Made by a program: the position numbers and the translations under genes. Shown in pieces: positions 4,607 through 23,361 of a stretch of DNA of 38,404 nucleotides (the stretch's first letter is position 1; each line of letters begins with the position of its first letter). The notes beneath the pieces were generated by a model. It had not been told where the DNA came from. It worked only from the letters and a program-made list of their open reading frames with translations, and made no database searches. Source of the stretch: Chiloscyllium plagiosum (Eukaryota). Location of the stretch: the NCBI RefSeq assembly GCF_004010195.1, contig NC_057726.1, forward strand, positions 61,793,835 through 61,832,238, in the 5' to 3' direction.

Positions 4607-4903
4607 GACTGGTGACCAATATGCTGTGTGAGACTCACGTAAGAGAAGATACAAAAGTCTAGAATAAGTATGTGAAGAGTGAGTCCTAAACTGTAGGTTG
4701 GAGAGCTGTATTTGAGAATCTCCTACGTGCCCACAACACTGAAGGTGAATATTAACATTTCATCTTCCCTTGCCATCATGCATATGAATTGCTTGCAATG
4801 TTCCAGATTAGTGGTACACAGTTAGCTACAACAAATGAAACAGCGATAAATATGAATTCTATGATATGTGATTGGATATCCTCGACTTCTATCCATAAAT
4901 AAT

Positions 4904-5071
4904 TCATAACTTCAGACTGCTTTTCTGGAATTTCAGGTTTTCTCGTTCTTTATCAGCTTTAAATTTGTACATATCGTGTATTTTTCTTCCTATGTTAGGT
5001 TTGATTTTTTTTTGGAACTGGTTAACTTCAAGTTGCCAAACCAGCTTGTCATCTCTACTGCTTTGATCAGT
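4904..5071 (-). CDS. IgSF receptor putative exon 6 (terminal cytoplasmic exon, TDQSSRDDKLVW...SSLKL*)
   Basis: Acceptor ttacttccatag lies immediately before 5071. The phase-0 frame is open for 55 codons to TGA at 4906-4904, matching the phase-0 end of exon 5. The sequence is non-repetitive between repeats. The link across a 6.6 kb intron is inferred. Confidence 0.55.
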   Translation of the reverse strand, partial: TDQSSRDDKLVWQLEVNQFQKKIKPNIGRKIHDMYKFKADKERENLKFQKSSLKL

Positions 5072-5133
5072 CTATGGAAGTAATGTTTAAAATCACCTGT
5101 TAGTCTATTGTCACTCCCTCCTTGAGATAATCA

Positions 5134-5355
5134 AGATTTGGAGATGCCAGTGTTCGACTGGGGTGTACAAAGTTAAAAATCACACAACACCAGGTTATAG
5201 TCCAACAGGTTTAATTGGAAGCACACTAGCTTTCGGAGCGACGCTCCTTCATTAGGTGATAGTCTATCACCTGATGAAGGAGCGTCGCTCCGAAAGCTAG
5301 TGTGCTTCCAATTAAACCTGTTGGACGATAACCTAGTGTTGTGTGTTTTTTAACT
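5134..5355. mobile_element. Palindromic Penelope-type terminal-repeat insertion (second family)
   Basis: 92 bp arms at 5171-5262 and 5264-5355 around a single T (4 mismatches). Direct repeat TGAGATAATC at 5123-5132 and 5355-5364. Confidence 0.88.
5271..5299 (+). ncRNA. Minimal hammerhead ribozyme core (Penelope type)
   Basis: cac-CTGATGA-AGGAGC-GTC-GCTCC-GAA-AGCT-A-gtg: 5 bp stem II, palindromic AGCU, CUA triplet, 3 bp stem I (cac/gtg). Confidence 0.72.
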
Positions 5356-11641: not shown

Positions 11642-11677
11642 CGGCTGTTGAGCTTCATCCACTACCGCAGCATGTCT
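11642..11677 (-). CDS. IgSF receptor exon 5 (cytoplasmic mini-exon RHAAVVDEAQQP)
   Basis: Acceptor ttcctttgggtgttcag and donor CCG|GTAAGA. The exon is 36 nt, phase 0-0, compatible with exon 4. Confidence 0.65.
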
Positions 11678-12713: not shown

Positions 12714-12835
12714 CCGCTTTAACACGAATGTTGTCAAAATGATTATCAATAGTAGAATTGCCAGCATGCCACCTGCCCATCTGGAGATCAGCAGATAATC
12801 TTTACCTACATGATCAATATTATTTGAATAAAAAA
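12714..12835 (-). CDS. IgSF receptor exon 4 (stalk and transmembrane: VFYSNNIDHVGKDYLLISRWAGGMLAILLLIIILTTFVLKR)
   Basis: Acceptor gtgctgtgcag (phase 1), a hydrophobic run ending in KR stop-transfer residues, and donor CGG|GTAAGA (phase 0). An alternative in-frame acceptor would start the exon at 12805. Confidence 0.82.
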
Positions 12836-16133: not shown

Positions 16134-16430
16134 CTCGATTAACAGTGTAGCTGACACTGGCGAGCTCTTCAAGACAGATATGAGATGCCTGGCAGGTATA
16201 AACTGCACCGCTCTGCACAGGCTGCGCTTGTTCCAACGAACTAGTAACCTCATAGAGCCCGTCCAAAGTCTTGTTTTTCACAGTTTGTATTCGGGCCTGA
16301 ATTTCGACGCCATCTCTTAGCCAGGAGATTCTTAAATCCTCCGGGTAAAAGGTTGTAGTTTTACATTCGAACTTCCAATAATTCCTGGAAATCCCTTCCA
16401 CGGCAACGATTTTCCGGAGTGTTGGGGAAA
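16134..16430 (-). CDS. IgSF receptor exon 3 (C1-set Ig domain)
   Basis: Acceptor tttactttctgttatag and donor CGAG|GTAAGA; 297 nt, phase 1-1. FECKTTTFYPEDLRISWLRDG, DGLYEVTSSL and YTCQASH fit the C1/Ig-MHC signature [FY]xCx[VA]xH. Confidence 0.95.
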
Positions 16431-18672: not shown

Positions 18673-18978
18673 CACACACAGTCAGCAACGAGCCACTTCC
18701 AGCTCCAATGATGGTTTGCTGATGCCTTAGTTTGCAAAAATACATTCCGGAGTCTGCGACAGTGACATTGAGAACATGAAGTGAGCTCCGTCCTTTCTCG
18801 ACATGCATTCGCTTTCTGCTGTCCGGTTCTAGAAGCGATTCCTCATTGCGTCTCCACCAAAATATTTCAGGAATGTCTTGAAATATGGGAAATGTGCAGA
18901 ACATGGAAACATTGTCACCTCTGGCCGCTTTCAACTGTTTGGGAAACTGATCTACTTTGCTCGAAGTTACTTTAGTTA
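18673..18978 (-). CDS. IgSF receptor exon 2 (V-set domain with J-like G strand)
   Basis: Acceptor tttctgttcttttttaaaatag and donor TGTG|GTAAGT; 306 nt, phase 1-1. Motifs GDNVSMFC, IFWWR, SSLHVLNVTVADSGMYFC and GAGSGSLLTV. Confidence 0.96.
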
Positions 18979-19203: not shown

Positions 19204-19243
19204 CCAGAAGAGCCATGAACAGAACCGCTGCTCTCGCCGACAT
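19204..19243 (-). CDS. IgSF receptor exon 1 (signal peptide MSARAAVLFMALL)
   Basis: ATG with A at -3, a hydrophobic core, and donor G|GTATGC in phase 1. It joins exon 2 in frame to give ...ALLVTKVTS-SKVDQFP. Confidence 0.88.
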
Positions 19244-21331: not shown

Positions 21332-21424
21332 NNNNNNNNNNNNNNNNNNNNNNNNNNNNNNNNNNNNNNNNNNNNNNNNNNNNNNNNNNNNNNNNNNNNN
21401 NNNNNNNNNNNNNNNNNNNNNNNN
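21332..21424. other. Assembly gap (93 N)
   Basis: Run of N next to a C-rich tract. Confidence 0.99.
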
Positions 21425-22646: not shown

Positions 22647-23361
22647 CTCCCTNNNNNNNNNNNNNGGCTCCGCAGAAATTGCAAAATATGCACTCACACC
22701 TCCCCCCTCACTTCCAACCAAGGTCCCCAAGGATTCTTCCCCATTCAACAGAAATTTACCTGTACCTCCACCAATGGAATTTACTGTATCCGCTGCACCC
22801 ACTGTCATATTTTCTGCATGGGGGAGACAGGATGCTAACTTGTGAATCATTTTAGATAACATCCCTGTGACACCCACACCAACCAACCCCAGTGCCCCAT
22901 GCCTAAGCACATCAACTTCCCCTTCCACTCCATCAAGGATGTGCACGTCCAGGGCCTCCACCATTGCCAAACCCTGGAGGAATAATGCCTCATATTTCAC
23001 CTTGGGACCCTGCAACCATATAGGATCAATGTGGATTTCACCAGTTTCTACATTTTCCCTCCCTCCACATTATCCCAATCCCAAGCCTCCAACTTGGCAC
23101 TGCCTTCTTGACCTGTCCATCAGCTTTCCCTTCTATCTGCTCCACCCTCCTGTCTCATTTATCACATTCTCAGTCACCTTCCCCCCAACCCCTCATCCAT
23201 TTATCTCTCAGTCCCCCGGCCCACAAGTCTCATTCCTGATGAAGTGCATATGCCTGAAATGTCGGTTCTCCTGCTCCTCGGATGCTGCTTGACCTGCTGT
23301 GCTTTTCCAGCACCACACTCTCGACTCTGATCTCCAGCATCTGCAATTCTCACTTTCTCCT
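22306..23361 (+). mobile_element. 5'-truncated Penelope-like element (GIY-YIG end and terminal repeat); contains a 13-N gap at 22653-22665
   Basis: QMASFFKDCNFP, then CKICTH...FTCTSTNGIYCIRCTHCHIFCMGET (degenerate GIY-YIG with the Cys/His motif). Hammerhead-like CTGATGA...GAAA near 23237-23263. Imperfect flanking repeat AGCAA(T/C)ACC. Confidence 0.9.

Follow-up and report, generated by a model that had tools for sequence, protein, structure and literature searches.

A minus-strand gene of the shark Chiloscyllium plagiosum is predicted to encode an immunoglobulin-type receptor, and its last exon is a relic. Comparison with homologues, with another individual and with a related species shows that a tail of predicted inhibitory type has lost both of its tyrosine motifs via a frameshift and a Tyr-to-Cys change. 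The gene lies in a window of 38,404 nucleotides, the whole stretch of DNA that was analysed (contig NC_057726.1, positions 61,793,835 to 61,832,238). Its product may be a non-inhibitory decoy or adhesion receptor, which would bind ligand without recruiting SHP and would stand beside paralogues that bear an ITIM; the probability of this reading is put at roughly one half. The consensus patterns of ITIM and ITSM motifs are established knowledge, as is the role of SHP recruitment; ITIM loss in paired-receptor families is likewise well known.

The gene consists of a leader, a V(J) domain, a C1 domain, a membrane exon and a 36-nt cytoplasmic exon (exon A), and the decayed exon is its 3′ end (Table 1). 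The upstream exons (leader, V, C1, membrane and exon A) are open in frame with GT-AG borders; their ~770 nt of coding sequence contain zero stops or frameshifts, the splice sites are canonical, and the Ig Cys and Trp residues are kept. Exon A is the top of 394 GT donors when scored against a 12-sequence profile, with a thin margin (11.3 vs 9.1), and the intron between it and position 5071 is 6.6 kb in length. Only one C1 exon is present within the window, and no second gene of the family was found there.

Table 1. Features of the receptor gene and of its decayed last exon (window coordinates)
Feature	Position	Strand	Observations
Leader exon	19204–19243	-	ATG at 19243, phase 1 donor; tblastn match to P0154 N-terminus, E 0.003
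V(J)-type Ig exon	18673–18978	-	Open; GxGS J-like motif; Pfam V-set, E 2e-10; 79% identity with P0003
C1-set Ig exon	16134–16430	-	Open; Pfam C1-set, E 1.6e-10; 93% identity with P0174
Transmembrane exon	12714–12805	-	Predicted descent from inhibitory paralogues; 18/25 columns identical to P0154; profile score 72 (Gly-type) vs 29 (Arg-type)
AGA (Arg) codon	12780–12782	-	Column where short-tailed paralogues carry Arg
Cytoplasmic exon A (short, phase 0)	11642–11677	-	AG/GTAAGA borders
Intron end	5072–5103	-	Branch-point-like CTAAC (5103–5099), pyrimidine-rich stretch, AG acceptor; paralogous contigs align across
Decayed last exon	4933–5071	-	139 nt from acceptor to old TGA (4935–4933), not a multiple of 3
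Net -2 frameshift site, ITIM destroyed	5030–5041 (codons 11–14)	-	Breakpoint scan; no indel in X5, X12, X16 contigs
A-run of variable length	5005–5013	-	9 in window and X12, 10 in X5, 8 in X16 (contig calls, homopolymer error possible)
TAG stop, old frame	4990–4992	-	AAG (Lys) in organism B
TGT (Cys) at second conserved Tyr column	4969–4971	-	No difference in X5, X12, X16
Stop of present (phase-0) frame, window allele	4904–4906	-	TGA

Homologues are found among shark, ray and chimaera proteins annotated SIRP-like or NCR3LG1-like. It should be noted that such family names (‘tyrosine-protein phosphatase non-receptor type substrate 1-like’, ‘NCR3LG1-like’) are automatic annotation and do not signify orthology. 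The closest relatives are P0174, a fragment from Chiloscyllium punctatum, and the C. plagiosum model P0003; the Chiloscyllium proteins of the family are 79% identical to the window gene in V and 73–93% in C1. The V tree groups the window gene with P0003 (support 100/99) and the C1 tree groups it with P0174 and P0003 (97/92). The chondrichthyan V(J)-C1 ‘SIRP-like’ family is characterized by a single-exon V(J), one C1 domain and nearness to known members, and all of these are found here. On domain content and phylogeny, the window gene is a leader-V(J)-C1-TM member of this paired-receptor family. Its domains, exon layout and last-exon frame are common to the chondrichthyan proteins XP_043563363.1, XP_067906043.1 and chiPu_0004843; unlike the family, it has a frameshifted ITIM, Cys for the second Tyr and Arg for Gly in the membrane segment, and its exon B was not found. 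Two extra cysteines, at the end of the V exon (18673–18680, minus strand) and after the second canonical Cys of C1 (16165–16180, minus strand), are common to P0003 and P0174 and missing from Heterodontus paralogues; a lineage-specific disulphide is possible.

Two classes of protein make up the family. One has long tails that bear tyrosine motifs, and its membrane segment is of the Gly type; the other has a membrane Arg, an acidic residue 17 positions on, and short tails. The catshark has one member of each class, P0166 and P0168, with near-identical V domains (V tree 100/98). The family looks like a set of paired receptors, with the signalling roles of both classes predicted from sequence. The profile matches several solved structures with broadly comparable E-values (1e-16 to 1e-10), among them UrIg2, SIRP-alpha, B7-H6 and Ig light chains, and the top two Atlas feature matches for paralogue P0154 are SIRP clusters at 0.96. 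A literature search found no description of this chondrichthyan V(J)-C1 family, a weak negative, as it covered mainly journals available without subscription. Non-rearranging antigen-receptor-like genes termed PRARP or VJC1 are mentioned in the available parts of PMC10751288 and PMC11599192.

The model of the probable orthologue, P0174, starts only in the later part of V and lacks a membrane segment, and searches for homologues did not find a full-length protein of the window gene or of a close orthologue. P0003 is the nearest relative with a tail, and both tyrosine motifs are present in it, 23 apart. In the P0003 model, however, the C1 domain occurs twice in near-identical form, a membrane segment is lacking and the first Tyr of exon B is lost; the model may be incomplete or a fusion. 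In P0154, P0177 and P0092, the cytoplasmic exons resemble tandem repeats of one module that contains two tyrosines ~23 residues apart.

The last exon of family members has a regular design. A Tyr is found 8–11 residues from the exon start in all 14 tails, which corresponds to codon 12 of the window exon, and a second Tyr follows 20–23 residues later in 13 of the 13 tails that reach that far. A tail profile was built from 12 family tails, with the near-duplicates P0163 and P0159 left out, and was anchored at every AG on both strands of the window with one frameshift permitted. The acceptor at 5071 ranks first of 4885 AG sites, with a score of 45.5 half-bits vs -25.5 for the runner-up, and none of 2000 shuffles of the exon reached its score. 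When no frameshift is permitted, the same acceptor also takes the top rank, with a score of -24.4. Unanchored, frameshift-free HMM searches placed the exon frame first in two of three cases and second in one, with E-values of 0.34–0.41 that are not significant, and tblastn of the P0003 tail alone did not match the exon; the exon is resolved solely by scoring that is both anchored to the acceptor and aware of frameshifts. On this scoring, the exon at 5071 is homologous to the two-tyrosine last exon of the family. An exon-start look-alike further upstream in the +1 frame (~5124–5098) scores 2.0 bits, overlaps the branch-point-like site and is treated as chance.

Read in phase 0 from the acceptor, the exon has 55 open codons that end at the TGA at 4906–4904 and contain a single Tyr but no ITIM. 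In the +1 frame the sequence is MTSWFGNLKLTSSKKKSNLT*EEKYTICTNLKL, in which the Phe and Cys of interest are 23 codons apart. The first-pass annotation had quoted these sequence features, together with an A-run 9 long, and all of them are present. Its central proposal, a formerly inhibitory tail with both tyrosines disabled, is borne out: the homologous tails that it suggested inspecting carry Tyr at both columns (14/14 and 13/13), and codon 12 is TAT in a paralogous contig.

The details of the first lesion differ from those first proposed. SWFGNL had been read as an in-frame SxYxxL motif, but its S and W are out-of-frame letters; the upstream family match in the exon is the phase-0 DDKL, and placing the break ahead of codon 11 lowers the score. 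LVYGNL is not supported as the exact ancestor, as the residue after the first Tyr is Ala in 13 of 14 tails and Ser in the remaining one, never Gly. Nor can a 2-nt deletion be pinned to position 5038; the breakpoint is spread over codons 11–14 (5041–5030), on the ITIM Tyr, and these positions are all within 3 half-bits of one another. Two 1-nt losses around GCA-ACT would yield YATL, which is found in 4/14 tails. A single 2-nt loss of the LVYGNL type would be one option only, with two 1-nt losses being the other, and the data do not separate the two.

With the variable A-run, the tail as it now exists differs in length between alleles. From 5071, the last exons of the window, X5, X12 and X16 alleles have 55, 25, 29 and 45 codons, respectively, and none of the four contains an ITIM or a YxxL/I/V/M motif; the intact (I/L/V/S/T)xYxx(L/V/I) motif that marks tails of the inhibitory class is absent from all four. 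All eight differences to organism B in the present frame alter a residue or create a stop and none is silent, which by itself is not significant (P 0.10). Divergence from organism B is 7/139 in the exon and 15/323 downstream (Fisher P 0.82, counted from 22 of the 25 X12 contig differences). Identity of the old frame with five shark tails is 31%, compared with 62% among those tails themselves. By these measures, the present tail is unconstrained. Exon B, the other tyrosine exon of the family, which precedes the last exon, left no trace among 6464 positions of the interval 11641–5072 (best score -10.3, control strand -10.8), and this interval is free of N gaps. The V and C1 domains show 7 differences in 122 residues vs 12 expected if neutral (P 0.08, on the assumption that the divergence of P0174 equals that of organism B).

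Four of 24 listed sequencing runs were compared with the window over positions 4610–5130. The X5 contig, which has the same species label but is not the window haplotype, spans 4656–5130, and in it the shift site, TAG and TGT are all retained. Organism B differs from the window at 25 positions in 489 nt (~5% divergence); in its X12 contig, both the shift site and the TGT are bridged without change, and the X16 contig is concordant with X12 at the lesions, although one letter under the bridging bar at 5038. With the TAG replaced by AAG, the old frame of organism B reads K-Q-D-K, like Heterodontus tails. Since the frameshift and the Tyr-to-Cys change are present in both the window and organism B, both are older than the split, and the TAG is younger. 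Because the lesions are kept in contigs of another individual and of a ~5%-diverged species, they are not assembly errors, an alternative that the first-pass annotation had itself raised. From the RNA run X18, of which ~2% was read, 0 reads fell on 4610–5130, which does not test expression either way.

By hand translation, the loose contig ends of paralogues in these runs read R-D-E-D-N-T-V-S-Y-A-V over codons 4–14, with the TAT noted above; other such ends have old-frame stops one codon before 4935–4933 or at that position, where the TGA of a paralogue aligns with the old TGA of the window. All three DNA runs also contain a paralogous contig with 113 letters vs 112 in the window, where an intact exon of the same layout would be expected to have 114. 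This paralogous last exon (X5 16, X12 4, X16 10) matches 5041–5130 and ~4834/4870–4928, and the 113 letters lie between the two matches. Its depth in X5 is 66 vs 14, whereas organism B is close to single-copy level, a hint of an expansion of the paralogue in organism A, although depth is not a copy number. At intron base 5091, the window differs from the matching X5 contig and from the X12 and X16 contigs, and the base is either a private variant or an error.

The membrane segment has a mixed character. By its profile scores and its identities with P0154 (Table 1), it clearly descends from the inhibitory, Gly-type paralogues. The column of the window Arg contains Gly in 12 of 18 Gly-type segments and Arg in none of the 18; it contains Arg in 7/7 Arg-type segments, a figure that is partly circular because this group was picked by eye. 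The window gene resembles the Arg-type class in having an Arg early in its membrane segment, but the other two marks of that class are missing: the segment itself scores as Gly-type, and Thr occupies the column 17 positions after the Arg, where all seven Arg-type paralogues have D or E. The next charge is 21 residues past the window Arg vs 17 in 7/7 Arg-type paralogues, which leaves an uncharged run of 20 residues after the Arg, and the most hydrophobic 19-residue stretch leaves the Arg out (2.69 vs at most 2.31 with it). The NxxR motif is absent, with Leu three positions before the Arg, and the segment end is not acidic. An Arg one column further along is found in P0166 and in P0161, the latter with three ITIM-like motifs retained; an Arg near the segment edge is therefore not diagnostic. 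The membrane Arg is known from the window sequence alone, as the run comparison was restricted to 4610–5130.

A non-inhibitory decoy or adhesion receptor is the likeliest reading of these properties. The frameshift and the Tyr-to-Cys change have removed both inhibitory motifs of the tail. The gene would be transcribed, with exon A spliced from 11642 to 5071; the family model P0163 likewise joins exon A directly to the last exon. The protein would reach the surface, and its Arg would sit at the outer membrane edge and not pair with an ITAM adaptor. The product may then bind ligand without recruitment of SHP-1/2 and compete with inhibitory paralogues or serve adhesion, cf. SIRP-gamma. The 113-letter paralogous contig does not fit this explanation and counts against it.

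It is also conceivable, if on balance unlikely, that the gene underwent an activating switch, in which an inhibitory paralogue gained a membrane Arg, lost its tyrosine motifs and came to signal via FcR-gamma or another ITAM adaptor, independently of the older Arg-type members of the family. The first-pass annotation had hinted at an activating member; the membrane Arg, which it did not mention, speaks for the hint, and the missing acidic residue speaks against it. The Arg occupies, on a segment of Gly-type descent, the column that separates the short-tailed paralogues from the Gly-type ones (7/7 vs 0/18, within the limits of a group chosen by eye), and every tyrosine motif of the tail is gone. 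KIR and Ly49 are precedents for a switch by few point changes (PMC2213150, available text), and an Arg near the segment start is a feature of LRC receptors that pair with FcR-gamma (PMC6557307, available text). The segment, however, has neither an acidic residue at +17 nor an NxxR motif, and the long uncharged run allows the Arg to remain outside the bilayer; the edge Arg of P0161 and P0166 further weakens its value as a sign, and the activating role of the Arg-type paralogues is itself predicted from their sequences.

That decay affects the gene as a whole, as a pseudogene within a duplicated cluster, with the tail exon merely the place where damage shows, is rather improbable. The three tail lesions and the missing exon B would be expected of a pseudogene, an annotated full-length product was not found (the P0174 model being a fragment), and the constraint test on V and C1 is not significant. 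Against these points, the upstream exons are undamaged over ~770 nt, whereas three lesions are concentrated in a tail exon of 139 nt, and two of the three predate the split from organism B. It would be more surprising still, and is judged very improbable, if the exon were a real relic no longer spliced to the gene, or if its lesions were errors of assembly. The length of the intron and a junction unseen in RNA would suit an unspliced relic, but the acceptor keeps a branch-point-like CTAAC and an AG in the family phase, and the window has no other family gene; assembly error is excluded by the contigs from three other runs, in which the frameshift site and the TGT are unchanged.

Among known systems, the mammalian SIRP family (SIRP-alpha, -beta and -gamma) is one of the closest to the proposed decoy or adhesion receptor. 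SIRPs have a V plus C1 ectodomain, and inhibitory, charged-membrane and motif-less members occur side by side, as here. The available text of PMC12975943 describes SIRP-gamma as a decoy or adhesion form that does not signal, and defines mammalian SIRPs by one V and two C1 domains. The window gene has one C1 domain, and where the SIRP tail has 4 residues, it has a junk last exon of 25–55 codons. By analogy, the window gene would work like a motif-less member of a paired-receptor family; its standing as a SIRP is not established, given the single C1 domain.

The KIR and Ly49 receptors are a second point of comparison. Activating members arose from inhibitory ancestors, with ITIM loss by a stop or frameshift and a new positive charge in the membrane (PMC2213150, in the part available). 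The window gene is like them in ITIM loss and new charge, and unlike them in its unrelated ectodomain and in having the charge at the edge of the segment. In activating LILR, NCR1, GPVI and OSCAR, the membrane segment has an Arg close to its N-terminal end, as in the window gene. For LRC receptors that pair with FcR-gamma, the available text of PMC6557307 names an NxxR motif and an acidic C-terminal end as features, and both are missing in the window gene.

ITIM loss alone is of modest interest, and the present example is a well-supported case of a known process. What it adds is an inhibitory-tail loss documented in a shark paired-receptor family with cross-species support, in which the order of steps is partly set: the frameshift and the Tyr-to-Cys change came before the lineage of organism B split off, and the stop came later. 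Should the Arg pair with an ITAM adaptor, the inhibitory-to-activating switch of the KIR/Ly49 style would extend to cartilaginous fish.

Several smaller features of the region may be recorded. The old motifs are not restored from alternative acceptors; 6 of 62 acceptor-by-allele readings hit TxYxxI in the third frame, none of them from 5071. This string, at 4985–4959 on the minus strand, is reached via doubtful acceptors or via allele combinations not seen from 5071, and is probably due to chance. Gaps of N are found at 21332–21424 and 22653–22665, upstream of the gene in repeat-rich DNA. Two palindromic elements are located at 5171–5355 (185 nt, 95% self-complementary) and 1414–1586 (173 nt, 90%), the former 100 nt upstream of the acceptor. 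Related copies of both are found elsewhere in the window, and they look like small mobile elements.
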